Sequence record: NC_018855.1
Length of the DNA stretch: 64,000 bases
Direction: 5' to 3' (one strand)
Source: Escherichia phage HX01
Positions within the stretch are counted from its first letter, which is position 1. Every line of letters starts with the position of its first letter. The position numbers were made by a program, and so were the translations under genes. Below are positions 2,507-58,925 of the stretch, piece by piece. The notes beneath the pieces were generated by a model. The model saw nothing but the letters and a program-made list of their open reading frames with translations. It did no database searches and had not been told where the DNA came from.

Positions 2507-3100
2507 ATGAACACACTGAAGAAACTTGTTGAATTCATCCGCACTAAACTGGGTACTGCTATGGCTAAAAATCTGACTGTAGAAGAACAGTATAACGCAG
2601 CTGCAGATAAGTTGATTACCCAAATCAAAGAACTAAAAACGGCTTCTGTTAAATCTATTAATGAAGAAAAACGTATTCGCGAACTTGTTAATGAAAAGAA
2701 CAAGCAAGCCGCTTCTAAGGAACGTGAAATTCGTAAGCTCCTGGCTGAAGGACAAGATGTTACCATGCATGCTAAGCTTGGTCTTCTGTATCGTCGAACG
2801 GCTGAACAACTTAATACAAAAGCTGACGGGTATGCCGCTATGCGAATTGAAATTGCTCGTAAGGTGGTTGAACTTGACGATGCTCGTCAGAACCTGGCAA
2901 TCAAACTCGAATACATTCGTGAAACTCGAGCAGCCAATGCCCTTGGTATCTCTACGGCTGATGATGTAATTGAAATCGCTGCACTAACTAAGGTTGATAT
3001 TGAAGACACTCTGACTCGTGTTGAAACGTTCAATGGCACTCCAACCGGTGTCGAAACCACTTCTGCTGATGTACAAGAATATATTAACTCTTTGAAATAA
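2507..3100 (+). CDS. hypothetical protein
   Basis: ORF track 2492..3100; first ATG at 2507. Confidence 0.6.
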
Positions 3101-3108
3101 AATAATAC

Positions 3109-3130
3109 GGAGGACTCCGGTCCTCCTTTT
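3109..3130 (+). terminator. rho-independent terminator
   Basis: GGAGGAC-TCCG-GTCCTCC then TTTT. Confidence 0.65.
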
Positions 3131-3149
3131 GGATAATAAAGGAGTTAAC

Positions 3150-3746
3150 ATGCGAAACCAAAATAATGATATTGACTCAATGTTCGAAGAGTTCCGAAAT
3201 AAGGTAAATCCACCTACGTCTTTAGTTGATTCATTACGATATGTTGCAACTGGACGTAAATGGTATTGGTCGTCTTCTTATGAGACAACTGAATATGCAA
3301 ATAACCGAAAATCTTTATTAGCCCCAGGTATTATGATTCATGATATCGGAGCTATTGCTAAACTAGTTGCAGACCATGATATTAGATTCACTGATTTCGT
3401 TGCTCCTACGTGGTCTGTTTGTTGTTTAAACACTGAATGGGACTATATCAGTGAACGTTCAGATGATTACATAGGCTTTAGAGACAAGCTTTTAAGGTCT
3501 AACATGTTTTATATTGATACAGAAGTTCTGGTCAATAATAAAAAATACTACTTCACTTTAATCGTCGATTCTGAAACTATGTATGAAGGCAAGCCTTTGC
3601 TTAAAAGAGTTGATGCTTTAAGTGCTATTGATGCGCTTTATGAAACCATGGTTGTTAGTCCTAATTTCACTAACAATTTAATCCTTGAGCAATTTATTAT
3701 GGAATGTAGAGAATATGTCAAAGCCAACCCTATACATGCCAAGTAA
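3150..3746 (+). CDS. hypothetical protein containing the EQFIMECR motif
   Basis: ORF track 3129..3746; ATG 3150 after SD AAAGGAG. Confidence 0.6.
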   Translation: MRNQNNDIDSMFEEFRNKVNPPTSLVDSLRYVATGRKWYWSSSYETTEYANNRKSLLAPGIMIHDIGAIAKLVADHDIRFTDFVAPTWSVCCLNTEWDYISERSDDYIGFRDKLLRSNMFYIDTEVLVNNKKYYFTLIVDSETMYEGKPLLKRVDALSAIDALYETMVVSPNFTNNLILEQFIMECREYVKANPIHAK

Positions 3747-4110
3747 GCCCTGGGCGTATGAATACAAGCGTAAATTAATCCCAAATGAAGTACTATTTGG
3801 CCCTATTTTAGCTTTAGCATTTTTAATCTTTATGATTATAGGAGCTGTTTTAGATTCCAATAAAGTTATATCGTCTGATGCAGCGTTTTCATTAATGTTC
3901 GTCGCACCACTTATTGTACCGTTTTTATTAATGCCTATTAATTGGGCAGGATATTGGCACCAAGGCCGTCATCACAGAGCCCGATTAAGAGAATGGAAAG
4001 TTCAGTGCGCAAAAGCCCAAGCTCAGTATGATGAAGCTGTTAAAAAGTATGAATATGAAGAAGCTATGGAATTCGTTAAGGAAATAAGATGCAAAAACCT
4101 CAACTCTTAA
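3715..4110 (+). CDS. small membrane protein, C-terminal EFVKEIRCKN tail
   Basis: ORF track 3685..4110; first ATG 3715; hydrophobic segments. Confidence 0.5.
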   Translation: MSKPTLYMPSKPWAYEYKRKLIPNEVLFGPILALAFLIFMIIGAVLDSNKVISSDAAFSLMFVAPLIVPFLLMPINWAGYWHQGRHHRARLREWKVQCAKAQAQYDEAVKKYEYEEAMEFVKEIRCKNLNS

Positions 4111-4451
4111 CCGTATGGCCTTCTCTTGGTGAGAACATTCTAATTTTTATTATGAGTATTGGCATGGGATTTGCCTTTGGATTAGTTGGATTTCTTATTG
4201 ACGGCGTTGTGTTAGGATTTATAGGGAACACTGGTGGATTCACAGACCAATGGCAGGACTTACGGTATACCCAAGCCTTTGCATCCATCGCATCATTTTG
4301 TACTGTAGTCTATTTTTACTACGATTTTATAAACCATAACAAGAAAAATAAAAAGGTTTACGCTTCTCAAATGATTAGTTATAATGAACTCCTAGCTAGA
4401 CGTGAAAATGAAACAATAGAAAACTTTATTAAGGAATGTAGAAATGAGTAA
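4089..4451 (+). CDS. small membrane protein, C-terminal ENFIKECRNE tail
   Basis: 120 aa, SD AAGGA, hydrophobic N-terminal half. Confidence 0.6.
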   Translation: MQKPQLLTVWPSLGENILIFIMSIGMGFAFGLVGFLIDGVVLGFIGNTGGFTDQWQDLRYTQAFASIASFCTVVYFYYDFINHNKKNKKVYASQMISYNELLARRENETIENFIKECRNE

Positions 4452-4749
4452 GATTATTGAAATTAAAGTACCAGAGTTTAATGATGCCAAATCCGCTTCA
4501 GATGCAATTTATAAACTTCTGAATCAAGCTGAACGTATCGAAGAAGAAGCAACAAAGATCGCAGACCAATATGCCGTATCATTTTCTGTAGGTGATTATG
4601 GTAGCGGTCGTACTTATTATCCTAAGGGTGAAATCGTATCCCAGTGGATGAAAGATGAAATTGAAAATAATGGTGGCGATGTTAAGCGTGAAGGTAATGG
4701 TTACGTTATTACTGAAGGTGCTTGGGTTTCGTCTTCTGCGTTGTGCTAA
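4444..4749 (+). CDS. hypothetical protein, paralog family ending W-V-SSSALC
   Basis: 101 aa; first of three tandem paralogs. Confidence 0.6.
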   Translation: MSKIIEIKVPEFNDAKSASDAIYKLLNQAERIEEEATKIADQYAVSFSVGDYGSGRTYYPKGEIVSQWMKDEIENNGGDVKREGNGYVITEGAWVSSSALC

Positions 4750-4758
4750 GGAATCATT

Positions 4759-5031
4759 ATGTCTAAAGAACAAACCGAACTGGCTGAAGCTGTAGCAAAA
4801 ATCTATGCAGCTATTGAGGCTGCCAAAGAAATTGCTGATAAACAAAACACAACATTCGACTTGTATCCAGCTTATGGTATGGGTGGAACATATCATTCAC
4901 CCGGACAGCTTAAAGCCGATCTTGAACGTTGTACAAAAAACGGCTATGCTGAATGGGCTGACGTTTACCAATACGACTACAACCTGAGCCTCGAAACTGG
5001 TGGTTGGATCGCATCTTCTCACACTTGCTAA
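4759..5031 (+). CDS. hypothetical protein, paralog family ending W-I-ASSHTC
   Basis: 90 aa. Confidence 0.6.
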   Translation: MSKEQTELAEAVAKIYAAIEAAKEIADKQNTTFDLYPAYGMGGTYHSPGQLKADLERCTKNGYAEWADVYQYDYNLSLETGGWIASSHTC

Positions 5032-5040
5032 GGAAACCAT

Positions 5041-5238
5041 ATGTCTCGTGAATTAGATTGTGCTGTACGTACGGCAGTAGCTGCCCTGGAAAACCTGTTC
5101 CAAATTGCAACAGAAGAACGCGAAGAAGTTACATTGTGGATTGAAGATAACGCAGGTCTGAATCTCCAGAACGCGATCTCATTATCCCACAATAGTATCA
5201 CTGTTCAAGGCTGGGTATCATCTAGTTATTCTTGCTAA
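5041..5238 (+). CDS. hypothetical protein, paralog family ending W-V-SSSYSC
   Basis: 65 aa. Confidence 0.55.
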   Translation: MSRELDCAVRTAVAALENLFQIATEEREEVTLWIEDNAGLNLQNAISLSHNSITVQGWVSSSYSC

Positions 5239-5242
5239 AACA

Positions 5243-5272
5243 GTTTACAACAAGATAGGGCTATGTTATAGT
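5243..5272 (+). promoter_or_regulatory. early promoter with inverted repeat around -10
   Basis: GTTTAC 5243-5248; GATAGGGCTA / TAGTCCTATC inverted repeat. Confidence 0.5.
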
Positions 5273-5300
5273 AGTCCTATCAAATTAAATGGAGTCCACA

Positions 5301-5540
5301 ATGATTTATTACGAAAGTATTGGAACCGAAGTGGTTGCTAAAACCATTACTCGTGAAAAGTTTGCAAAGATATTCGATATGCGTTATAAAAAATCTGAAC
5401 ACAAAGGCATCCGATTCGAAGATGCACACTGTACAATTTGCCCTTATAACGAAGACATAAATGGTACAATCGTTCCATTGGTAGAGGCTTCACACGATGA
5501 CCTCTGGGATGAATATGATATCGCATGTCGTGAAATTTAA
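5301..5540 (+). CDS. hypothetical protein
   Basis: ORF track 5289..5540; ATG 5301 after SD GGAG. Confidence 0.5.
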   Translation: MIYYESIGTEVVAKTITREKFAKIFDMRYKKSEHKGIRFEDAHCTICPYNEDINGTIVPLVEASHDDLWDEYDIACREI

Positions 5541-5568
5541 GTTAATGAATTAATCCGAGGAAAATATT

Positions 5569-6525
5569 ATGATGTTAGTTATTGGTTCTCGTGCACTTCA
5601 CTATCACGGTCTTATTGATTCTAACGCTATCAAAAATAGTGACTGGGACTTTATTGCAGACCAAGGTTCTTGGAATGCATTCAAAAATCAAATGATGGGT
5701 GTATATGTTCACCAAGATAACCCTGATGTCCAAGTTTTCAAATGCTTCCATAATGGACGCGAAACTCATTTTGAAGCATATATTGTTCCGGCAATCACTA
5801 ATGTCCGTGAATTAGTAGGTGAACTCACTCCTGAAGATTTCACGTCTTCTTATGACCTTTTAAAATACGCCAAGAAAAATTTGACTAAAGACCGTTTGAA
5901 CGGGTTTTACTGGGCAACTCCTGAGATATGTCTTGCAATTAAGATGTCTCATCGTTTCAAGAAAAATAATCCATTCTTTTTAAAGACTATGAACCATATT
6001 CAGTATCTTCGTGGTAAAGGTGTTACACTGAACGATGAACTTACTGAAATTATGCTAAAACGCCAGAAAGAAACCTTGAACTATGCTCACCCAGTTCTTG
6101 ACACTTCTAAAAGTGCGTTCTTTAAAGATGACATCTATACATATGACCATGATACTATTCATGAAGCCATTGCACTAACAGACCGTCCAGCGTATACATT
6201 TTATATGAAAGACGGTTCTGAAGTCATGACATCACGCGAGAAGTTCGAATCATTACCAGAAATGGTCAAATTGGCCGGTGTATACGAAGAATCATGTGTA
6301 CTAGCATTAGAACGTTCTCAAATTCCTAATGACTTTAAAATTAACCCTGAAGCCAGTTTTATGATGGCATTAGAAAAAGTATGTACAAGCATCACCTCCG
6401 GTTGGTTCCGTGAGTATGCCTGGGAAAACTACAGCAAAGTAGTAAGTATGTACCAAAGCTTAGGACATGATGATTACGTCAAACGTTTCAAACAAAATTT
6501 CCATATGGTAAAACCTTTCAAATAA
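5569..6525 (+). CDS. predicted nucleotidyltransferase-fold protein
   Basis: 318 aa; N-terminal IGSRALHYHGLIDSNAIKNSDWDF resembles the GS...DxD motif of Pol-beta-type NTases; unverified. Confidence 0.6.
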   Translation: MMLVIGSRALHYHGLIDSNAIKNSDWDFIADQGSWNAFKNQMMGVYVHQDNPDVQVFKCFHNGRETHFEAYIVPAITNVRELVGELTPEDFTSSYDLLKYAKKNLTKDRLNGFYWATPEICLAIKMSHRFKKNNPFFLKTMNHIQYLRGKGVTLNDELTEIMLKRQKETLNYAHPVLDTSKSAFFKDDIYTYDHDTIHEAIALTDRPAYTFYMKDGSEVMTSREKFESLPEMVKLAGVYEESCVLALERSQIPNDFKINPEASFMMALEKVCTSITSGWFREYAWENYSKVVSMYQSLGHDDYVKRFKQNFHMVKPFK

Positions 6526-6537
6526 CTTCACAAAACT

Positions 6538-6567
6538 GTTTACACAATTATAGGGCTATATTATAGT
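6538..6567 (+). promoter_or_regulatory. early promoter
   Basis: GTTTAC 6538-6543; near copy of the 5243 promoter. Confidence 0.5.
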
Positions 6568-6595
6568 AGTCCTATTAAAACATGAGGAGAATATT

Positions 6596-6901
6596 ATGAA
6601 ATTAACAGAAACCAACCGAATTGGTCTTTTAACAATATTTGCATCACCTTTTTACGCAGCCCTTTCTGTTGCAGTATTACAAAAGGCTTACGATATGGAT
6701 GGTGTTCCTGGTTTTGTATTCTTATCACCGTTTTTATTATTCGTCGGAGCATTGTTATTATATGCCACGACTAGTTTCGACCATAATGTCTGGGTCAATT
6801 ATAAATGTAAATTGTCTGAAGAAGAACACGCAGAAGCTCGTAAAAAAGCTATTGAATCTACCAATCTAGAAAATTTCATTAAAGAATGTCGAGGAAAATA
6901 A
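6596..6901 (+). CDS. small membrane protein, C-terminal ENFIKECRGK tail
   Basis: 101 aa, SD GAGGAG. Confidence 0.6.
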   Translation: MKLTETNRIGLLTIFASPFYAALSVAVLQKAYDMDGVPGFVFLSPFLLFVGALLLYATTSFDHNVWVNYKCKLSEEEHAEARKKAIESTNLENFIKECRGK

Positions 6902-6902
6902 T

Positions 6903-7589
6903 ATGAATAGTTCTAAAGTGTTTAATAGTCAAGCTCGTGCAGTAGGTGGTTTCGCTGGTAAAATTTCTAACGATAAAATCAAAAACGAACCTATGTTCTT
7001 CAACAGCTCGTTAGCCTTCGCTTTTGATAATGGTGGCCCTATTACTCGCAGCTTCATCATGAACCTACCAGATGATTGGAACACCGACCAGGTTGTATTT
7101 GATTCACGAGTCCACATGCTGATGCCTGGTTGGTATCCTGCTATTCCTGGATATCACCATGATGACGTACCACGCCCTGATATTCCAGTTGGTCAACACT
7201 TTATTACTGCAGGACAACCTGATTATGACAATCCTCGCTATTTGTCTGAACATATTCTTGGTCTTGTTAACGCTGATGTGTGTCCTACTCATTTTGCAAC
7301 AGGAACTGCAGAGTTCAGTCAGATTCCTGATGGCGAACTTATCTATCGTCAGTGGCACAAAGAAGTCCTCGAAAAAATTGAAAAAGGTGAACTAGAGAAA
7401 TGGGAAGCTCCAGATCGTACTCTTCTTCAGTTTGATTGGCAAACATGGCACACTGGTTCTCGTGCAATTAGTAACGGATGGCGTTGGTTCGGACGTGTAT
7501 CTCGTAATACAGACCGAGTTAAAAAGATTACCAATGAAATTCGTGTCAATGCTCAAGTTTATCTGGAATTCCCTATGGAAGGCTGGTAA
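6903..7589 (+). CDS. hypothetical protein
   Basis: 228-aa ORF, translationally coupled. Confidence 0.6.
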   Translation: MNSSKVFNSQARAVGGFAGKISNDKIKNEPMFFNSSLAFAFDNGGPITRSFIMNLPDDWNTDQVVFDSRVHMLMPGWYPAIPGYHHDDVPRPDIPVGQHFITAGQPDYDNPRYLSEHILGLVNADVCPTHFATGTAEFSQIPDGELIYRQWHKEVLEKIEKGELEKWEAPDRTLLQFDWQTWHTGSRAISNGWRWFGRVSRNTDRVKKITNEIRVNAQVYLEFPMEGW

Positions 7590-8080
7590 TGATTAACAAA
7601 ACATATTGGTCTAATATAGACGATAGCAATGAAGGTATTTCATACTATTCAGTAGATTGGACAGGATGTCCATCCTACTTAGTGAAAAATATTTGCCAAG
7701 AATTTAAAATCGACCAGCCAGCAGGTATTATCGTGAACAGATACATTAATGGATATCAACCTATCGATGAAGTAATACGAACAACTCAAGCTGAGCTTGA
7801 AAGGTTTTTCAATAAGTGCCAATGGATAACAGGATGGATTATATTTGTACCATCTATATGGTTTTTCAGTACTAAGGTGAGTTCTTTCGGTTTTGTTGAT
7901 ATTATTGCTATCTTATTAGCATCTAGTATCATAAGTGTTGTTGGTGGCATCATTGGCGGCGGTACCGCCGCCATCATTATTAATCTTGTTAAAAGTAGTT
8001 TACAAGAACATAAAGACAAGATAAAAGCCAAGAATAATGAAGTTGAACGTTTTATTACCGAATGCAGGAATTTGAGATGA
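7589..8080 (+). CDS. membrane protein with glycine-zipper TM segment, C-terminal ERFITECRNLR
   Basis: 163 aa; VVGGIIGGGTAAIII. Confidence 0.6.
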   Translation: MINKTYWSNIDDSNEGISYYSVDWTGCPSYLVKNICQEFKIDQPAGIIVNRYINGYQPIDEVIRTTQAELERFFNKCQWITGWIIFVPSIWFFSTKVSSFGFVDIIAILLASSIISVVGGIIGGGTAAIIINLVKSSLQEHKDKIKAKNNEVERFITECRNLR

Positions 8081-8313
8081 GTATAGCAATTTACATTAAA
8101 TCAGAATCATGTGATTCTTATCTGTATTCCTATGATACCGGAACGTCAGAAGAGAAAATCAAAGAAGATTTAGAAAGCGACTTGGATATGTTCCGACCTA
8201 TTTCTGATTATATGGTCCAAATATCTGATAGTGAAAGTCCGTCAACAGAAACATGTGTTGAAATTATTATACGAGATATCTTTAAACAATCATGGGACCG
8301 AGATGATGAGTAA
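8077..8313 (+). CDS. hypothetical acidic protein
   Basis: ORF track 8062..8313; ATGA overlap start at 8077. Confidence 0.5.
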   Translation: MSIAIYIKSESCDSYLYSYDTGTSEEKIKEDLESDLDMFRPISDYMVQISDSESPSTETCVEIIIRDIFKQSWDRDDE

Positions 8314-43816: not shown

Positions 43817-44452
43817 ATGAAAACTACTCCTATTACTATCGCTATTGACGCAATCATAAAACAAGCTTCTTCTTTGGTCGCTATGGCCAAAGTAATTAGT
43901 CAAAACCCTGCTCGTTATAATGCTATTCTAGAAACTCTTCGACGCCCAGGACTTAGTAATTATGAAAGCCGAGTAATTATTACAGGTGTTGGTAAGAATG
44001 CTAATATTGCAACTAAAGCTTCTGAGACATTTGCTTCACTCGGTATCCCGAGTATGTACTTGAACACTGGACATTATTCTCACGGTGATGCAGGATTCAT
44101 TGCGCCTAATGATGTGTTGATTCATATTAGTCGTTCTGGTAAAACTGAAGAAATGATAGGCGTGGCTAAGCATCTTAAAATGATTCGTCCGAACGTCAAA
44201 CAGATTCTGTTGCATTGTAACCCGGACATTCCACAAGAATACGAAGCTCTTTTTGATTATACGTTCTGTACAGGCATCGCAGTAGAGGTTGATGAGAATT
44301 CTCTGGCTCCGACCATGTCCACTACATTGTTGTTAGCGCTTATCGATACGTTTGCTATCAACCTTTCGTCTGAACGTGGATTTACCTCTAATGACTTCCT
44401 TAAGTTCCACCCTGGCGGTGCACTAGGTGCCATGTTACGAGGCGAACAATGA
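43817..44452 (+). CDS. SIS-domain sugar-phosphate isomerase (arabinose-5-phosphate isomerase / phosphoheptose isomerase-like)
   Basis: ITGVGKNANIATKASETF and HISRSGKTEE match SIS-domain signatures. Confidence 0.75.
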   Translation: MKTTPITIAIDAIIKQASSLVAMAKVISQNPARYNAILETLRRPGLSNYESRVIITGVGKNANIATKASETFASLGIPSMYLNTGHYSHGDAGFIAPNDVLIHISRSGKTEEMIGVAKHLKMIRPNVKQILLHCNPDIPQEYEALFDYTFCTGIAVEVDENSLAPTMSTTLLLALIDTFAINLSSERGFTSNDFLKFHPGGALGAMLRGEQ

Positions 44453-44633: not shown

Positions 44634-46319
44634 ATGAAAAAAGCTGTTATTCTTGGTGCTGGACTGGCAACTCGTTTGTATCCAATAACGCATCATATTC
44701 CTAAGGTGCTTGTTAACTATAAACAAGACACTATTCTGAGCAATTTGTATACAATTTATTCTGACCTTGGCGCAGATGAAATTATTGTAGTAGTTCATTC
44801 AAAATTTGCTGAAACTGTTCGAGCTTATTGTGAGCAAGAAGGGTTCAATGTGACTATTCGTACAGTTGATGAAGCGTATGGTTCTGCTTATGCTCTTGCT
44901 AAATTGCACAAAGATTTAGACGGCCATAATGTAATTGTTAACTGGTGTGATATTATTCCTGATTTTGGTTCATGGTCTTGGAATGTTAACGCAATCTATG
45001 TTAAAGGTGACGAATGTCGATATAATTTCGACGGTGAAAATATCACTAACGTAGGTTCAACAGGTGGTAATGTTGTAGGAATTTATCAGTTCAAAGACTG
45101 GGAATTCTATATGGGTTCTACCGATGAGGAAATTCATGAATACTGCAAAGGACGTGATTTCGTAGAATTCCTTTACGGCAGTGCATTCAATAAATCAGAG
45201 CTTATGAATCTAATTGATTTAGGTGATATGCCTAAACTTGAAAAGGCTCATGAAGTTCGTGAACTTAATCGTAGTTTTAATGCCGTTGAAATTGGTGAAG
45301 AAACTGTAACTAAATTCGCATTAACCGAACAAGGCCGAGCTCTTCAGAAAGATGAGATTTCATGGTATCTTAAAGTGAAATCAGATTCAGTTCCTCAGTT
45401 AGTTTCTGTTAATGAAAATAACTTTGAAATGGAACGCATTAAAGGTAAGCCGGCATTTGAATATATTAAATCCAAATCGAGTCTTGCTCGTCCACAAATT
45501 GTTGATGCAATTTTAGATGCACTGAAATTCAGCACAGACACTTATTTTGTAAGTCCTGAAACTGTTCGTCGTGATTTCACTAAAGAATTCTATACTAAAG
45601 TTATTGATCGTTGTGAAAGTATTCAACCATTGATTGATTCATTTGGTAAAATCACACATGTGAACTACACTAAGATTGGGCGTCTGAAGCCAATGTTGAA
45701 ACAAGCTTTAGAACACCTTATTCGTTATCATAACCGTTCTCAGGGACAGTACTCTGTTATTCATGGTGACCCGAACTTCAGTAATACTATGATTACTGAT
45801 AATGGTGAAGTCAAGTTTATCGACCCTCGTGGATATTTTGGTGAAACCAAGATTTATGGACCAAAATTGTACGACGAAGCTAAAGTGCTTTATGCTGTTT
45901 CAGGTTATGATGAATTCAACGCTAATCCGACCTGGGGACAGTTTACTATTGACGAAACAACTTGTAATGTGTCTATTAACATCAATCCATTAGTTTACAA
46001 ATATGGAAAGATGAGTTCGTTTAACGAGTATCATCATTTGGCAGTGGCAATTATCTGGATTGCATTAGGTGGTTATTTCAAGAATAATCCACTTAAAGCG
46101 GTAGCCGCATATTATAAAGGTATGGAACTTCTGACTAAGCAATTACGTAACATGGGCCGTGTACTTCAGGACGGCTCTATTAGTTATGACGTAGCAGAAC
46201 CTGTAACGGCTACTCTGATTACAAAAAATCCTGGTAAATGGGTACTAACTGATAAAGAAACTGGTGTTTCCTATCGTCCAATCGGTGGCGATATCACTCA
46301 TCAATGGGAACGAATCTAA
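44634..46319 (+). CDS. bifunctional sugar-1-phosphate nucleotidyltransferase / sugar kinase
   Basis: N-terminal GAGLATRLYPITHHIPKVL (G-x-G-T-R-x-x-P motif); C-terminal HGDPNFSNTMI and FIDPRGYFG (APH/ChoK-like kinase motifs). Confidence 0.75.
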   Translation: MKKAVILGAGLATRLYPITHHIPKVLVNYKQDTILSNLYTIYSDLGADEIIVVVHSKFAETVRAYCEQEGFNVTIRTVDEAYGSAYALAKLHKDLDGHNVIVNWCDIIPDFGSWSWNVNAIYVKGDECRYNFDGENITNVGSTGGNVVGIYQFKDWEFYMGSTDEEIHEYCKGRDFVEFLYGSAFNKSELMNLIDLGDMPKLEKAHEVRELNRSFNAVEIGEETVTKFALTEQGRALQKDEISWYLKVKSDSVPQLVSVNENNFEMERIKGKPAFEYIKSKSSLARPQIVDAILDALKFSTDTYFVSPETVRRDFTKEFYTKVIDRCESIQPLIDSFGKITHVNYTKIGRLKPMLKQALEHLIRYHNRSQGQYSVIHGDPNFSNTMITDNGEVKFIDPRGYFGETKIYGPKLYDEAKVLYAVSGYDEFNANPTWGQFTIDETTCNVSININPLVYKYGKMSSFNEYHHLAVAIIWIALGGYFKNNPLKAVAAYYKGMELLTKQLRNMGRVLQDGSISYDVAEPVTATLITKNPGKWVLTDKETGVSYRPIGGDITHQWERI

Positions 46320-46705
46320 TGCACCGTGTAGAAAACATGCTTAATCTTTGTTTTGATGTCGATGATTGTATAACAGAGTGGAATAACAACCGTGATTACG
46401 TGAACTTCAAACCAGACGTCGAAATGGTGACTGCCATTAATGCCCTGTACGATGCAGGGCATACCATAACGCTTTACACTGCTCGCGGTATGAAGTCAGT
46501 CGGTCCTGGTCGTATAGCAATTGACATTCTCCCAAGTCTGATTCAGAACTTGGCAAACATTGGATTGAAGTACCATAATTTGCTAACACATAAACCAGTA
46601 TATGATTGGATTATCGACGACAAAGCTATGCGTCCTGACGAATTCAAAGCTCTTATGAATAAAGGCGAATTCGAAACATTTAAATCATATAAACCGAATC
46701 TATAA
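46319..46705 (+). CDS. HAD-superfamily phosphatase
   Basis: Motif I FDVDDCIT; TAATG-coupled start at 46319. Confidence 0.65.
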   Translation: MHRVENMLNLCFDVDDCITEWNNNRDYVNFKPDVEMVTAINALYDAGHTITLYTARGMKSVGPGRIAIDILPSLIQNLANIGLKYHNLLTHKPVYDWIIDDKAMRPDEFKALMNKGEFETFKSYKPNL

Positions 46706-46762: not shown

Positions 46763-47923
46763 ATGAATACTTTTAAAATCGGAACGAATTTTGATTTAGC
46801 TCTTCTTGATAAAATCGTAGAGCTCAATAAAACTTATCCTAATAGCTTGATAAACGAAGTATACGGCTCTACAAGAGAAATGGCTTTTGTAGCAGCCAGA
46901 CCTGATTTTAGGCTTCCTGACGTTGACAAAAAGATGTTAGAAGATTATGTTAAACGTTGTAACGAATTAGGTATTTGCTTTAACTATACACTCAACACGA
47001 TAAATCCTGGTTCAAAAAGAGAACTAGTTGAGTGGAAGAAGAAAGCTATTCAGGATTATGTTCAGTATCTTTGGTCAATAGGCGTATGGCGTATTACTAT
47101 CGCTAACCCTGTTGTTATGGAAATTGTTCGTGAAGTCAATAAAGACATTGAGATTGAAGTTTCAACAATTCTACATGTCGATGCTGTAACTCAAATCAAA
47201 TACTTGCATGACCAATATAATATCAAAAAGGTCTGCTGTGGAATTCATAAGAACCGTTCAGTTTCTTTCCTGAAACGTGCAGCAGAGTTTTGTAATAAGA
47301 ACAATATAATATTTGAAGTTCTTGTAAATGAGTTCTGTTCTAATGCTGGTAAAGGGTACACAACACATTGTAGCTATCGTGACTCTTGCTATATTTTCCA
47401 TAGCACCGATGTTACAGTAGATGATGCCAAATCCTTAAATGGATATCCAATGCAACACTGTATTAAAGCTCGTGATACAGATCCATTTAACTGGTTGAGA
47501 ACTCGTTTTGTTCGTCCTCAAGATTTGAAACTTTATAATGATATTGGTATCACTCAATTTAAAGTTTCGGGACGTACAGGTAGCACAGACTACATTTTGA
47601 AAGTTCTTGAAGCTTATGCTTCTGAAAAGTTTGAAGGCAATTTGTTGGAATTGTGGAAGCCTTTAGAGACCATTTTCACTCTTGAAAATGAGACCGAGTT
47701 TTCACATACAGTAAATATTGAAACCTCTTTGTTAGACGGCTTTTTAGAAAAAAGGTGGTTCAAACATCCAGATTTCGATTGTGCTAATGAAATCTGCGGG
47801 ACGACGTGTACATATTGTGAAAGATATTATAAACGTCAGTTATCTAAAAATGGGTTATCAGAAAACTCTATATCTATTATTGATATAACTAACTCTGATG
47901 ACGCTTTGAGGTACCCAGAATGA
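46763..47923 (+). CDS. peptidase-U32-family-like protein with Cys cluster
   Basis: FKVSGRTGS resembles the U32 LKIEGRTKS motif; EFCSNAGKGYTTHCSYRDSC and C-terminal CANEICGTTCTYC. Confidence 0.5.
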   Translation: MNTFKIGTNFDLALLDKIVELNKTYPNSLINEVYGSTREMAFVAARPDFRLPDVDKKMLEDYVKRCNELGICFNYTLNTINPGSKRELVEWKKKAIQDYVQYLWSIGVWRITIANPVVMEIVREVNKDIEIEVSTILHVDAVTQIKYLHDQYNIKKVCCGIHKNRSVSFLKRAAEFCNKNNIIFEVLVNEFCSNAGKGYTTHCSYRDSCYIFHSTDVTVDDAKSLNGYPMQHCIKARDTDPFNWLRTRFVRPQDLKLYNDIGITQFKVSGRTGSTDYILKVLEAYASEKFEGNLLELWKPLETIFTLENETEFSHTVNIETSLLDGFLEKRWFKHPDFDCANEICGTTCTYCERYYKRQLSKNGLSENSISIIDITNSDDALRYPE

Positions 47924-48000
47924 TTTCTAGAAAAACTTTTAACCACCAACTTAACGAAGAGATTTTGACTATTAAAATTAACAGCAACGAACAAATTCTT

Positions 48001-48025
48001 AAAAAGGCCCATAAGGGCCTTTTTG
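48001..48025 (+). terminator. possible terminator
   Basis: AAAAAGGCCC-ATAA-GGGCCTTTTT; lies inside a possible 51-aa ORF. Confidence 0.4.
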
Positions 48026-48161
48026 AAACTAAAGCGGCTAAAGTGATTAAAGAACCTGTTCAACTAGAATACTAAGCCGAAGCTCTACGTTATATCAACA
48101 TCGCTAAGAAATTCAAATAAGCTTTATGAATTGAGTATATAATAACTGTATTGAGGTAAAC

Positions 48162-48878
48162 ATGGGAAAACATAACACAATGAAATATATTAAAGCCGCA
48201 GATTTTCAATCCGCATTTAAAGCTGTCAATCGTGAAATTTTAGAAAATCCACAGTTCATTACTGATTCTCGTATTGGACGTTGTAATGAAATTGGGTCTA
48301 TGACAGTAGTTGTTGATACCCCTTCATCATTCAAAATGACCGACCCACGTATTAATCGCATCTCTTATGAATATGCTGAAGATTTCTGGAAATTTATGAT
48401 TTCTGGTGGTACTGATGCAAAAGAAGCATTTAAGGCATATCCTAACGTCGCTAAATTTATTTCTAAACCTAAATCAGACGCTTTGCCTGCAAACTTCAAC
48501 ACTTTCTATGGTCCACGAATTGCGGCCCAGTTACCAACTCTTCTAAAAGAACTTAAAGAAAAACCTAACTCTCGAAGAGTTGTGTTCCAAATTCTAGAAA
48601 GTTCTGATCAGGCTTTGCTTGATTCAGACGAAACACTTGAATATCCATGTACTGACTCAGTGACTTATTATATTCGTGATGGTAAGCTTTATACCCACTG
48701 TCATATGCGTTCTCAGAACTGTGCTGTTGTTATGCAGTTGGATTTTTATCTCCAAGGAAAATTACTTCATTATATCGCTAACGAATGTGGTGTAGAAGTT
48801 GGTGATTATACTCATACCATGGTAAGTGCCCATGTGTTTGAACGTGATTTTGATTATGTTAAAGGATTCCTTGACTAA
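48162..48878 (+). CDS. 42: thymidylate-synthase-fold pyrimidine hydroxymethylase (gene 42-like, divergent)
   Basis: RRVVFQI, PCTDSVTYYIRDGKLYTHCHMRSQN, QLDF align to TS / dCMP-hydroxymethylase core motifs, with Asp at the cytosine-specificity position. Confidence 0.65.
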   Translation: MGKHNTMKYIKAADFQSAFKAVNREILENPQFITDSRIGRCNEIGSMTVVVDTPSSFKMTDPRINRISYEYAEDFWKFMISGGTDAKEAFKAYPNVAKFISKPKSDALPANFNTFYGPRIAAQLPTLLKELKEKPNSRRVVFQILESSDQALLDSDETLEYPCTDSVTYYIRDGKLYTHCHMRSQNCAVVMQLDFYLQGKLLHYIANECGVEVGDYTHTMVSAHVFERDFDYVKGFLD

Positions 48879-49777
48879 TGGCTATTTTCCGCGTACCTAT
48901 TTTGAGTATGCGGTCTTATGAAACTGGACAGTATGCTATCCTTAAGGATGGCAACTTCCAACTTCATTTGCACCGTGCTAATCCGGGTGATGTGATTACA
49001 TATCCACGTAATGCATCTGATATTAAAGAATGTGAACGTCTTTTCCCAGAATTTAAGTTTGTTCCATTATGGTATAAAGATAACGCATATAACACTCGTA
49101 AATATTTCTGGTCTGAAAATGAATTTGTGGTTGATTCATTAATTGATTATTATGATTGTGATTTTCTAATCACAGATATCACTGGATATGACGGCACTTT
49201 TGACGTAGAATTCAATTTCAATATCACTGCAGACCCTAATAAACCACGTTTTTATATTGACGAATTCTTAAAAACCGACATGTTGTCTGTTAATCGTTCA
49301 CTTCAAACTACTGTGTTGAATGAACGTCAAAAAGAAGTGCTGGTTAACGCAGGTGCAGATGGTAATAAGATTATCGTAACGCAGAAAGTTATACGTCCTT
49401 CCATCATGCAGCGTCTTGTAGGTGATTTGGCCCCTATTCATCTAGATGGTATTTTTCATCCATTTCGAATTAGTGACCCGTGTTATCGTTTTGAACAAGT
49501 GGTTGAATGCGCAATTCAATTAGGTCAACCGCTTTATATAACCGATCCAAATAATAGCTTCGACAGAAATAAGTATCCTGAAGAAGCACTGATTCGAATT
49601 TTTAAACCAACTAAAACTGAGTACTATCAAATTCTTAAAGGAAGACCGAAGATTCAATATTTCGAAAATCCTGAAGAAGTATTCCATCCAGGTCTTGGCG
49701 AGTTCATCTACTTTAACGCTTTAATTTCTTCACCGTATAATATACCTAAATATGAAGATGTCGTAATCGAGGAATAA
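48878..49777 (+). CDS. hypothetical protein; candidate DNA glycosyltransferase by position
   Basis: 299 aa in the slot where T4 has beta-gt; no diagnostic motif recognised. Confidence 0.35.
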   Translation: MAIFRVPILSMRSYETGQYAILKDGNFQLHLHRANPGDVITYPRNASDIKECERLFPEFKFVPLWYKDNAYNTRKYFWSENEFVVDSLIDYYDCDFLITDITGYDGTFDVEFNFNITADPNKPRFYIDEFLKTDMLSVNRSLQTTVLNERQKEVLVNAGADGNKIIVTQKVIRPSIMQRLVGDLAPIHLDGIFHPFRISDPCYRFEQVVECAIQLGQPLYITDPNNSFDRNKYPEEALIRIFKPTKTEYYQILKGRPKIQYFENPEEVFHPGLGEFIYFNALISSPYNIPKYEDVVIEE

Positions 49778-49778
49778 A

Positions 49779-50327
49779 ATGGCTAAAATTATTTTAGTAG
49801 ATGGCCCAGATAATGCTGGTAAAACAACTTTCATTAATGACATAATGGAAATTAGTGAAAGATATGTAAAGATTGATTTCCCTAAACGAACAGTTGATGG
49901 ACGTTTCGATGTTAAGTCTCGAAATGAAGTTGGCTGTTTCGAAACGATGTTGAATTATTTAGACCCTACTAAGATTTATCTGTTAGACCGTGGATATATT
50001 AGTAACTGGGTTTATGGACGTATTCGACAAGATGCGGACTCGGTTCTTGACGTTTATGAACAGGATTATGTTCGTCTTTGCCAAAACCATGATGTGTTCA
50101 CAATTATTTTAACACGTAACGAAATGACTGAAAGTTTTGAAGACGACCTTATTACTTTGTCTTCATTCGGTTTTAATACAGTCATTTCATATTTTGAAGA
50201 GTTTGCAATTCATAACGAAATCCAAACGTATCAATTACTTAATCATGATGGTGCTAACAAAGTTATAGGATTTAATGCAAGCGAACGTAATGGTTTGATT
50301 ACAGAAATTATCAAATGGGCTCGTTAA
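49779..50327 (+). CDS. P-loop kinase (nucleoside/nucleotide or small-molecule kinase-like)
   Basis: Walker A VDGPDNAGKTT, LLDRGY motif. Confidence 0.6.
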   Translation: MAKIILVDGPDNAGKTTFINDIMEISERYVKIDFPKRTVDGRFDVKSRNEVGCFETMLNYLDPTKIYLLDRGYISNWVYGRIRQDADSVLDVYEQDYVRLCQNHDVFTIILTRNEMTESFEDDLITLSSFGFNTVISYFEEFAIHNEIQTYQLLNHDGANKVIGFNASERNGLITEIIKWAR

Positions 50328-50426: not shown

Positions 50427-51599
50427 ATGTCTGATTTAAAATCTCGTCTGATTAAAGCTTCTACTTCTAAAATGACTGCAGACTTGACTAAGTCTAAGCT
50501 GTTTAATAATCGTGATGAAGTCCCTACTCGTATTCCGATGTTGAATATTGCATTAGGTGGTGCACTGAATGCCGGGTTGCAATCAGGCTTAACTATTTTT
50601 GCTGCTCCTTCTAAACACTTTAAAACGTTGTTTGGACTGACCATGGTTGCAGCGTATATGAAGAAATATAAAGATGCAATCTGTTTGTTTTATGACTCAG
50701 AATTCGGTGCTTCGGAATCTTATTTTCGTTCAATGGGTGTTGATTTAGACCGTGTAGTTCATACACCAATTCAGTCAGTCGAACAACTTAAAGTTGATAT
50801 GACTAATCAGCTTGACGCGATTGAACGCGGTGATAAAGTTATTATCTTTATCGATTCAATCGGTAATACTGCATCTAAGAAAGAAACTGAAGATGCATTG
50901 AACGAGAAAGTTGTAGGTGATATGTCTCGTGCTAAGGCACTTAAATCTCTTTTCCGTATTGTGACCCCGTATCTGACTATTAAAGATATTCCGTGTGTTG
51001 CAATTAACCATACCGCAATGGAAATTGGCGGATTGTATCCTAAAGAGATTATGGGCGGTGGTACAGGTATTCTTTATTCTGCTAACACTGTATTCTTTAT
51101 CTCTAAACGTCAGGTTAAAGAAGGTACAGAATTGACCGGTTACGACTTCACGTTGAAAGCAGAAAAATCTCGTACAGTTAAAGAGAAATCTACTTTCCCG
51201 ATCACGGTTAATTTCGATGGTGGTATCGACCCATTCAGTGGCTTGCTAGAAATGGCAACTGAAATCGGTTTTGTGGTTAAGCCTAAAGCTGGTTGGTATG
51301 CTCGTGAATTCCTTGACGAAGAAACAGGTGAAATGATTCGTGAAGAAAAATCATGGCGTGCTAAAGCTACTGATTGTGTAGAATTCTGGGGACCTTTGTT
51401 TAAACACAAACCTTTCCGAGATGCAATTGAAACTAAATATAAACTAGGTGCTATCTCTTCTATTAAAGAAGTTGATGACGCTGTTAACGACCTTATTAAT
51501 TGCAAAGCAACAACTAAAGTTCCGGTTAAAACTTCTGATGCTCCGTCTGCAGCAGATATAGAAAACGACCTTGACGAAATGGAAGATTTCGATGAATAA
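50427..51599 (+). CDS. uvsX: recombinase UvsX (RecA-like)
   Basis: MSDLKSRLIKASTSK...AREFLDEETGEMIREEKSWRAK matches T4 UvsX. Confidence 0.96.
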   Translation: MSDLKSRLIKASTSKMTADLTKSKLFNNRDEVPTRIPMLNIALGGALNAGLQSGLTIFAAPSKHFKTLFGLTMVAAYMKKYKDAICLFYDSEFGASESYFRSMGVDLDRVVHTPIQSVEQLKVDMTNQLDAIERGDKVIIFIDSIGNTASKKETEDALNEKVVGDMSRAKALKSLFRIVTPYLTIKDIPCVAINHTAMEIGGLYPKEIMGGGTGILYSANTVFFISKRQVKEGTELTGYDFTLKAEKSRTVKEKSTFPITVNFDGGIDPFSGLLEMATEIGFVVKPKAGWYAREFLDEETGEMIREEKSWRAKATDCVEFWGPLFKHKPFRDAIETKYKLGAISSIKEVDDAVNDLINCKATTKVPVKTSDAPSAADIENDLDEMEDFDE

Positions 51600-51933
51600 T
51601 CTCGATGATTTAAATCTAGAAATCGTTGATGAATCCCCTTCTTTGGAAGGGGAGGACATTCGCAAAGAACGAGTGTTTAATGAATCTCTTAAAATTGTCC
51701 GTTCAGCAATGGAAAATGTCATTCAAGAGATTCTGATTACACTTGAAGACGGTTCCCATCATATAGTCTATATTACAAAACTAGACTGGGTTGATGGTAA
51801 AATCGTAATGGACTTTGCAGTTCTTGACCAGGACAGAAAAGCAGAACTTGCACCACATGTTGAAAAATGTGTTACAATGCAAGTACAACAAGCTTTTAAT
51901 GAACGGACCAAGAAAAAATTTAAATTCTTTTAA
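51592..51933 (+). CDS. 40: gene 40-like protein (by position)
   Basis: 113 aa between uvsX and 41. Confidence 0.6.
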   Translation: MNNLDDLNLEIVDESPSLEGEDIRKERVFNESLKIVRSAMENVIQEILITLEDGSHHIVYITKLDWVDGKIVMDFAVLDQDRKAELAPHVEKCVTMQVQQAFNERTKKKFKFF

Positions 51934-58313: not shown

Positions 58314-58403
58314 AATATCTCCTTAGTTACCTTATTATTTATTACGCTTTATAAAATTAATGTTAGAATTAACTTCTCTTATACTGAATTGAAAGGAAAA
58401 ATA

Positions 58404-58925
58404 ATGGCACACTTTAACGAATGTTCACAACTTATTTCTGGTGTTGATAAAGCAGAAGAAGCTTATTTTAATGCTCTGATTCACGAAGATAAAGACCCAC
58501 TGCAGGTAATGCTTGATATGCAGAAATCTTTACAGGTTCGTCTGGCAAATGACAAGCCTGAACATAACAAACATCCTGATGAATTAGCCACTGCTGGCGA
58601 TGTTGTTGATTGGCTGCGTAATCAGAAAGATTATATTGATGATGAATTCCGTGAACTGCTGACTTCACTTGGTGGTATGAGCAATGGTGAAAAAGCCGCT
58701 AGCTCTGTATGGAAGCCGTGGAAGGCACAACATGCTGAATATCGAAATCGTCGTATCGATGAACTGTCTCCTGAAGACCAGCTTGAAATTAAATTCGAGA
58801 TGATTGATATCCTCCACTTTGTTCTGAATATGTTCCAAGGTCTGGGTCTTTCCGCTGAAGAAATCTTTAAACTGTATTACCTGAAAAACCAACACAACTT
58901 TGAACGCCAGGATAATGGTTACTGA
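58404..58925 (+). CDS. 56: dCTPase/dUTPase gp56 (MazG-like)
   Basis: MAHFNECSQLISGVDKAEEAYFNAL...; position after primase as in T4. Confidence 0.85.
   Translation: MAHFNECSQLISGVDKAEEAYFNALIHEDKDPLQVMLDMQKSLQVRLANDKPEHNKHPDELATAGDVVDWLRNQKDYIDDEFRELLTSLGGMSNGEKAASSVWKPWKAQHAEYRNRRIDELSPEDQLEIKFEMIDILHFVLNMFQGLGLSAEEIFKLYYLKNQHNFERQDNGY

Follow-up and report, generated by a model that had tools for sequence, protein, structure and literature searches.

In the 64,000-nucleotide stretch of Escherichia phage HX01 that we analysed (NC_018855.1; hereafter the window), the slot held by gene 42 in phage T4 is occupied by an ATG-to-stop open reading frame (ORF) of 238 amino acids on the plus strand (48162-48878). 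The source phage is a Mosigvirus, an RB69-like T4-type phage whose DNA is ~98% identical to that of Escherichia phages F2, AV112 and PHB12. An earlier note, made from the sequence alone, had described the ORF as a highly divergent gene 42-like hydroxymethylase with a thymidylate synthase (TS) fold; ORF, fold and slot all hold good, and the four core motifs that it listed (RRVVFQI, PCTD, HMRSQN and QLDF) are all present. The Pfam Thymidylat_synt match above the gathering score covers only residues 122-235 (E 2e-15), and an AlphaFold2 model built on a 61-homologue alignment (predicted local distance difference test, pLDDT, 87.5) displays the full TS fold. The label itself has to change. The gene very probably is afhB, coding for a flavin- and O2-dependent deoxycytidine monophosphate (dCMP) 5-hydroxylase, also called 5-hydroxy-dCMP (5hodCMP) synthase, that would carry out the first step towards arabinosyl-5-hydroxycytosine DNA. 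The key residues of the window protein, to which we return below, are R37, F75, R138, R139, E160, C163, R183, S184, N186, V190, D194 and H224.

This identification is carried by near-identity to proteins that have been studied experimentally. The window AfhB is 98% identical to gp48 of phage RB69 (NP_861738.1), with five substitutions (S17T, Q31E, I33V, K87E and T126A), and 99% identical to AfhB of phage HY126 (PDB 9iqc, 9ir2 and 9iqu), with two substitutions relative to 9iqc (I33V and T126A); none of these changes falls at a signature or conserved position. Identity to gp216 of Rhizobium phage RL38J1 is 31%. Homologues from RB69 (gp48), Acinetobacter phage DLP3 (gp80) and RL38J1 were among those studied by Lee et al. 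(NAR 2026, PMC13326640). In that work, RB69 gp48, DLP3 gp80 and other homologues in which asparagine replaces the aspartate found at residue 169 of E. coli ThyA (D169N) led to 5-hydroxy-dC, not 5-hydroxymethyl-dC, in E. coli DNA, gp48 and gp80 being assayed in E. coli together with a deoxynucleoside monophosphate (dNMP) kinase. 18O from 18O2 ended up in the product of RB69 gp48, the purified protein was yellow and carried a bound flavin that was released as flavin mononucleotide (FMN), and the virion DNA of RB69 and DLP3 contained mono- or poly-arabinosylated 5-hydroxycytosine (PMC13326640). For HY126 AfhB, the titles of two PDB entries released on 2025-07-16, “Monooxygenase dependent on riboflavin with dCMP and FAD” (9IQC) and “phage HY126 dCMP hydroxylase-AfhB with substrate dCMP” (9IQU), imply conversion of dCMP to 5-hydroxy-dCMP with flavin and O2, and He et al. 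(Nat Chem Biol 2026), as cited in PMC13326640, obtained a crystal structure with flavin and reconstituted the reaction in vitro. For near-identical proteins it is also established that the dNMP kinase accepts 5hodCMP and that arabosyl units are attached on the DNA. The dCMP 5-hydroxylase identity and the chemistry of afhB were thus already published in 2025-2026, and nothing that we report on the gene itself is new. Given the 98-99% identity to tested proteins, the window enzyme would share its substrate with T4 gp42 while differing in product and cofactor. Of the earlier suggestion that substrate or product may differ, the part on the product (5-hydroxy-dCMP) therefore stands, and the cofactor differs as well, but the substrate is the same, dCMP.

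The signature residues agree with this assignment, the window protein showing every testable defining feature of the AfhB/5hodCMP synthase family. In E. coli ThyA numbering, for which the ThyA sequence was checked against PDB, C146 corresponds to C163 of the window protein, L143 to E160, N177 to D194 and D169 to N186. Asparagine at the D169 position has been proposed as diagnostic for 5hodCMP synthases (PMC13326640). None of C163, E160, D194, N186, R138, R139, R183 and S184 varies among 61 homologues, whose identity goes as low as 53%. We extended the comparison by searching 1.8 billion representatives with a profile and tabulated the signature positions for two groups. In a clade of short proteins (about 210-260 amino acids, signature E-C-N-D), the equivalents of C163, D194 and E160 are kept in all 75 members, and position 186 is N in 57, S in 8, D in 4, C in 4 and H in 2. 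At scores of ~110 bits and lower, a second group appears, made of proteins of about 280-340 amino acids with the signature D-C-D-D and MilA as best PDB match; D169 is kept in 30 out of 30 of these MilA-like proteins, in T4 gp42 and in ThyA. Three further positions follow the same division. ThyA E58, in a column whose alignment was anchored on that of the conserved W61, is replaced by Phe in 61 of the 75 hydroxylase-clade members (F75 in the window) and remains Glu in the 30 MilA-like proteins, gp42 and ThyA; G173 becomes Val, Thr or Ile in the hydroxylase clade (V190 in the window) and remains Gly in MilA-like proteins, gp42 and ThyA; and W80 becomes Val or Ala in the hydroxylase clade (V96 in the window). 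The last 43 residues of ThyA are absent from the window AfhB. E58, G173, W80 and D169 are positions of the folate site or of the general base, so we infer that their replacement is consistent with a change of cofactor. As judged from these alignments, E58F, W80V/A and G173V/T/I, added to the published D169N, form an extended signature that would separate hydroxylases from their folate-dependent relatives, a small addition to what was known.

Variation at position 186 (codon at 48717-48719 of the window) deserves mention on its own. The representatives P0144, P0157, P0166, P0170, P0186 and P0209 are among the variants, and those with Ser, Cys, His or Asp at this position may carry out another chemistry, or else Asn may not be strictly required.

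The distance to T4 gp42 is real. On proper alignment, the window AfhB is 24% identical to gp42, whereas the flanking replication proteins, T4-like as the earlier note had said, are 62-85% identical to their T4 counterparts; high identity to gp42 did not emerge, and the observation of strong divergence is thereby confirmed. Its explanation is another matter. With the window AfhB as phmmer query, MilA was matched over its full length (E 1.5e-11), ThyA over its C-terminal half, and T4 gp42 was absent among the best 60 matches; with gp42 as query, 9iqc scored 29.8 bits, less than Bacillus subtilis ThyA (43 bits). Among solved viral or bacterial relatives, gp42 is the most distant from AfhB. A neighbour-joining tree, the kind of phylogenetic check that the earlier note had called for, joins the hydroxylase and MilA-like clades as sister groups and leaves gp42 outside them. 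It was built from a MAFFT alignment, ThyA and gp42 aligning only locally under hmmalign; without bootstrap and with ThyA as single outgroup, it is only supportive. Sequence, structure and this rough tree nonetheless agree in grouping AfhB with the MilA-like enzymes and with a large clade of viral proteins, gp42 being outside, which speaks against regarding the gene as a stretched gp42 orthologue. Neither does AfhB evolve fast, as had been proposed, since, among the phages that carry it, its conservation matches that of gp43 and gp41: it is 68-70% identical to DLP3 gp80, with gp43 at 65% and gp41 at 59% between the same phages, and 80% identical to its JS10 counterpart, with gp43 at 84% and gp41 at 68%. 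The drop in identity is confined to the step from the T4 type to the RB69 type. We ascribe the low identity to gp42 to the presence of a different TS subfamily in the gene-42 slot, not to rapid drift. A fast-evolving gp42 orthologue is ruled out by the distance to gp42 together with this gp43/gp41-like conservation, and the window holds no second TS-fold gene (a separate gp42 or td).

Two other functions have nevertheless to be weighed, both of them rooted in current annotation. A folate-dependent dCMP hydroxymethylase, diverged from gp42 but functionally equivalent to it, would yield arabinosyl-hydroxymethylcytosine DNA, and the likeness to T4 gp42 (PDB 1B5E and 6L18) is indeed considerable: both have the TS fold, dCMP as substrate, phosphate-binding Arg and Ser residues, the catalytic Cys (C148 in gp42, C163 here), the Asp at the N177 position (D179 in gp42, D194 here) and an acidic residue where ThyA has L143, and both genes lie between gene 43 and uvsX and are followed by that of a DNA glycosyltransferase, which in T4 is beta-gt. 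Some GenBank records use the hydroxymethylase name, and a 2018 paper on RB69 assumed a hydroxymethylcytosine base (PMC6024577). However, the nucleophilic Cys and the Asp179-type cytosine specificity (C163 and D194) are common to AfhB, gp42 and MilA and do not discriminate among them, and the window protein falls short of family-level similarity to gp42. Where gp42 has Asp, Glu and Gly at ThyA positions 169, 58 and 173 and adds CH2OH from methylene-tetrahydrofolate, AfhB has Asn, Phe and Val (N186, F75 and V190) and adds OH from flavin and O2. D169N, E58F, G173V and W80V thus alter residues kept by gp42 and by 30 out of 30 MilA-like relatives, and the experiments on 98-99% identical proteins gave 5-hydroxy-dC, oxygen derived from O2 and a bound flavin. 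The literature has largely refuted the hydroxymethylase function, which we consider very improbable for the window gene. MilA itself (CMP 5-hydroxymethylase of mildiomycin biosynthesis; PDB 5JNH and 5B6D) and its relatives of ~300 amino acids are folate-dependent hydroxymethylases acting on CMP; they are about 60-100 amino acids longer than AfhB and mostly have RQ where AfhB has RR. The window protein, with E-C-(RSQ)N-D, F75, V190 and 238 amino acids, departs from the D-C-(RS)D-D, Glu58, Gly173 and about 280-340 amino acids that characterize them. An authentic, dTMP-producing thymidylate synthase, the commonest database annotation, is less credible still, to the point of being negligible. Pfam Thymidylat_synt does score above gathering, many records bear this name, and E. 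coli ThyA (PDB 2TSC) shares with AfhB the fold, the catalytic Cys, the R126/R127/R166/S167 phosphate cradle, Y94 and H207. Yet identity to ThyA is 21%, AfhB differs by N177D, L143E, D169N, E58F, W80V and G173V, the 43-residue C-terminal segment that closes over folate in ThyA is missing, and the product shown by experiment is 5hodCMP. The pyrimidine-specificity position holds Asp (D194) instead of Asn, and all NCBIfam equivalog cut-offs are missed: the best TS model, TIGR03283, reaches 70 of the 174.55 bits required, and the others at most 50 bits against cut-offs of 108-427. These cut-offs and N177D rule out a true thymidylate synthase.

Several points weigh against the identification as AfhB. 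The function of the window copy is assigned from near-identity to tested proteins; the flavin is named differently from source to source (FMN for RB69 gp48, ‘riboflavin’ and flavin adenine dinucleotide (FAD) in the 9IQC title); the flavin mechanism is backed by PDB titles and by a citation in PMC13326640; and no source of reduced flavin was recognized in the window. In addition, the 2018 paper took RB69 DNA as hydroxymethylcytosine-based (PMC6024577), and many database records still name the protein thymidylate synthase or dCMP hydroxymethylase.

For the 5-hydroxylase, we propose a reaction in which methylene-tetrahydrofolate would be replaced by a loosely bound flavin and O2. As in other TS-family enzymes, Cys163 would add to C6 of dCMP, as suggested by the invariant Cys, Arg and Ser residues, and the phosphate would be held by a cradle formed by R37, R138, R139 and R183 together with S184. 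Asp194 would read the N3/N4 edge of cytosine and select it over uracil, a role that the equivalent residue is known to have in ThyA and T4 gp42. C5 would then be oxygenated in the former folate pocket, presumably by a reduced-flavin/O2 species whose exact nature we can only propose, and elimination of the Cys would release 5hodCMP. The phage dNMP kinase and the host nucleoside diphosphate kinase would convert 5hodCMP to 5hodCTP, which the phage polymerase would insert where C would go. UDP-arabinofuranose would be supplied by the adjacent isomerase together with AfhE and AfhF, and one or more neighbouring glycosyltransferases would attach arabinofuranose, the end product being arabinosyl-5-hydroxycytosine DNA that would resist restriction enzymes.

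Nowhere is the family more strictly conserved than at residues 108-119 (LPANFNTFYGPR; window 48483-48518), where L108-R119 are nearly all invariant. Residues 100-120, which overlap this block, have the lowest confidence in the AfhB model (pLDDT 58-71). The L108-R119 segment is probably a mobile loop that closes over cofactor or substrate.

The same 238-amino-acid start is used in PDB 9iqc, and a ribosome-binding site (GAGG, 48153-48156) can be read from the sequence 5 nt 5' of the ATG at 48162. Further upstream, also on the plus strand, lies a candidate T4-type middle promoter (48120-48143), which consists of aGCTTTA (48120-48126), an 11-nt spacer and TATAAT (48138-48143); we take the aGCTTTA to be MotA-box-like by comparison with the T4 MotA-box consensus, and the call is a reading of these letters. 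A generic sigma-70 promoter scan gave sites no more numerous than in shuffled controls. Before this candidate promoter, and within a 51-amino-acid ORF upstream of afhB (47920-48075), there is a terminator-like hairpin (47999-48026, plus strand) with a 12-bp stem, an ATAA loop and a 3' arm ending in UUUUU. It folds at -17.7 kcal/mol (z -4.5), and none of 200 shuffles folds as well. The succession of a hairpin with a U-run, a MotA-box-like element and TATAAT suggests that afhB begins its own middle-type transcription unit.

Around afhB, the window codes for the full remaining route to the modified base: isomerase, AfhE, AfhF, glycosyltransferase, kinase and dCTPase, all on the plus strand. The UDP-arabinose branch starts with an arabinose-5-phosphate isomerase (43817-44452; PMC13326640), the orthologue of RB69 gp55 (phrog_5670, E 1e-115; 99% to RB69). 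It is followed by an AfhE-type sugar kinase/nucleotidyltransferase of 561 amino acids (44634-46319), with matches to Pfam NTP_transferase and weaker ones to kinase families, which matches RB69 in pieces; a bifunctional AfhE function in HY126 is cited in PMC13326640. An AfhF-type HAD phosphatase of 133 amino acids (46304-46705; phrog_1238), orthologous to RB69 gp51 and 98% identical to RB69, has its role assigned in the same paper. Immediately downstream of afhB, in the T4 beta-gt position, lies the gene of a predicted DNA arabinosyltransferase 1 (48878-49777; 299 amino acids; phrog_3891), the orthologue of RB69 gp46:47, with 98% identity to RB69 over the part that matches and 46% to DLP3 gp79; its assignment is structural (PMC13326640, Table 1). 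Next comes a thymidylate-kinase-like P-loop nucleotide kinase of 182 amino acids (49779-50327; phrog_761), the orthologue of RB69 gp45 (99% to RB69). Farther away, a dCTPase, a gp56-type NTP pyrophosphohydrolase (58389-58925; phrog_173, E 2e-45), would supply dCMP and remove dCTP, following the T4 paradigm and Table 1 of PMC13326640 (RB69p028). The AfhE gene and the glycosyltransferase gene are intact single ORFs in the window, whereas the RB69 record splits them (gp52/gp53 and gp46/gp47); this agrees with the explanation of the RB69 splits as sequencing errors (PMC13326640).

The order AfhE, AfhF, AfhB and then glycosyltransferase is common to the window, DLP3 and JS10, and the isomerase is also found upstream in the window and DLP3, but JS10 has no match to the window isomerase. 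A trio made of the TS homologue, a glycosyltransferase and a thymidylate-kinase-like P-loop kinase recurs in the window, DLP3 (5995-8180 of the locus) and RL38J1 (2932-5383 of the locus). This order is kept across Straboviridae and Pootjesviridae despite different sugars, Rhizobium phage RL38J1 using hexoses (PMC13326640). Gene fusions occur as well in metagenomic proteins, with a C-terminal His_Phos_1 domain joined to AfhB in P0124, P0126, P0128 and P0130, and a MazG (dCTPase-like) domain in P0174. One metagenomic locus (L009) contains, in this order, a SIS isomerase, a 186-amino-acid ORF, an AfhE-like gene and an AfhB::His_Phos_1 fusion (5382-6683) and is devoid of an HAD AfhF gene; the fused His_Phos_1 domain probably replaces AfhF. 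As to the proposal that the gene was acquired with a sugar island, its linkage to sugar genes is borne out; the arrival of AfhB together with them fits this co-occurrence but is not proven.

Two genes upstream of afhB (46763-47923, plus strand), the window encodes a Peptidase_U32-family protein of 386 amino acids (Pfam PF01136, E 6e-11). Its RB69 orthologue, gp50, is entered in PMC13326640 only as ‘sugar or heterocycle reductase’, without discussion. Searching PDB by sequence with the U32 protein returned no matches. One member of the U32 family, E. coli RlhA, is annotated as the 23S rRNA 5-hydroxycytidine C2501 synthase. RlhA, TrhP and UbiU/UbiV are O2-independent Fe-S hydroxylases, and each of them has an O2-dependent alternative. 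A speculative possibility, which we regard as unlikely although not negligible, is that phages of this type have two routes, with the U32 protein as a candidate Fe-S-dependent anaerobic C5 hydroxylase acting on dCMP or another form of cytosine and AfhB as the O2-dependent half. Such a system would mirror the arrangement of UbiI/H/F and UbiU/V, and of TrhO and TrhP, in E. coli, and it would extend the explanation given above for afhB without replacing it.

Several observations are in favour of two routes. AfhB chemistry needs O2, and the U32 family includes RlhA, TrhP and UbiU/UbiV. With hhalign, the profile of the phage U32 proteins matches RlhA (probability 78%, E 2e-5) better than UbiU, and C158, C192, C203, C209, H213 and C233, as well as a CX4CX3CX2C motif at 340-352, are invariant in 121 U32 homologues. 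Homologues with 48-58% identity are found in nucleotide-metabolism neighbourhoods of large phage-like contigs (L011-L016): one directly follows dCMP deaminase and is close to Pol III alpha, UDG, thymidylate kinase and SSB, another adjoins NT5C, dNK and deoxyribosyltransferase, and a third lies between glycosyltransferase-like genes, dUTPase/DCD and UDP-galactopyranose mutase. All of these U32 homologues lack a TS-fold gene within 7 kb. Among isolated phages, the 220 records with U32 have Enterobacterales and Shewanella hosts, which are facultative anaerobes, and Acinetobacter and Rhizobium phages are missing from the U32 organism tallies, with 64 and 22 such records, respectively, matching the AfhB query. 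By contrast, the E. coli phage JS10 has AfhB and no U32 gene in the cluster region examined, which makes the host correlation imperfect, and phylogeny confounds it as well. No clean correspondence emerges between the cysteine pattern and the canonical U32 motif, MAFFT and hhalign disagree on how the cysteines map onto the Fe-S ligands of UbiU/UbiV/RlhA, and the match to UbiU is weak (hhalign E 0.009). The published label, ‘sugar or heterocycle reductase’ (PMC13326640), also points elsewhere, and the support comes from sequence and gene context. In the literature searched, we found no paper proposing U32 as an anaerobic hydroxylase.

Elsewhere in the window, gp40 (51592-51933) is 77% identical to RB69 gp40, 98% to that of phage 308Ecol101PP and 79% to that of T4, and the neighbouring uvsX and gp41 share 99-100% identity with RB69. 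By these identities, gp40 is a small mosaic patch. A tRNA-Arg(TCT) gene lies at 73-149, and a 5'-truncated tRNA at 1-66 on the window edge.

The value of these results is in part corrective: the gene should not be named gp42, dCMP hydroxymethylase or thymidylate synthase, although such names persist in most database records, and hydroxymethylcytosine should not be assumed in RB69-type phages that carry afhB. The enzyme class is a striking one, a TS fold in which folate has been swapped for flavin and which now carries out a monooxygenation. Its product provides the 5-hydroxycytosine that serves as anchor for arabinose chains shielding phage DNA from restriction and CRISPR. The idea of U32 as an anaerobic hydroxylase is testable and may be new. 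If it were true, these gut phages could make 5-hydroxycytosine DNA in anaerobic hosts, AfhB alone being insufficient in the gut, and the U32 relatives found in huge-phage-like contigs without a nearby TS homologue would be stand-alone nucleotide hydroxylases.

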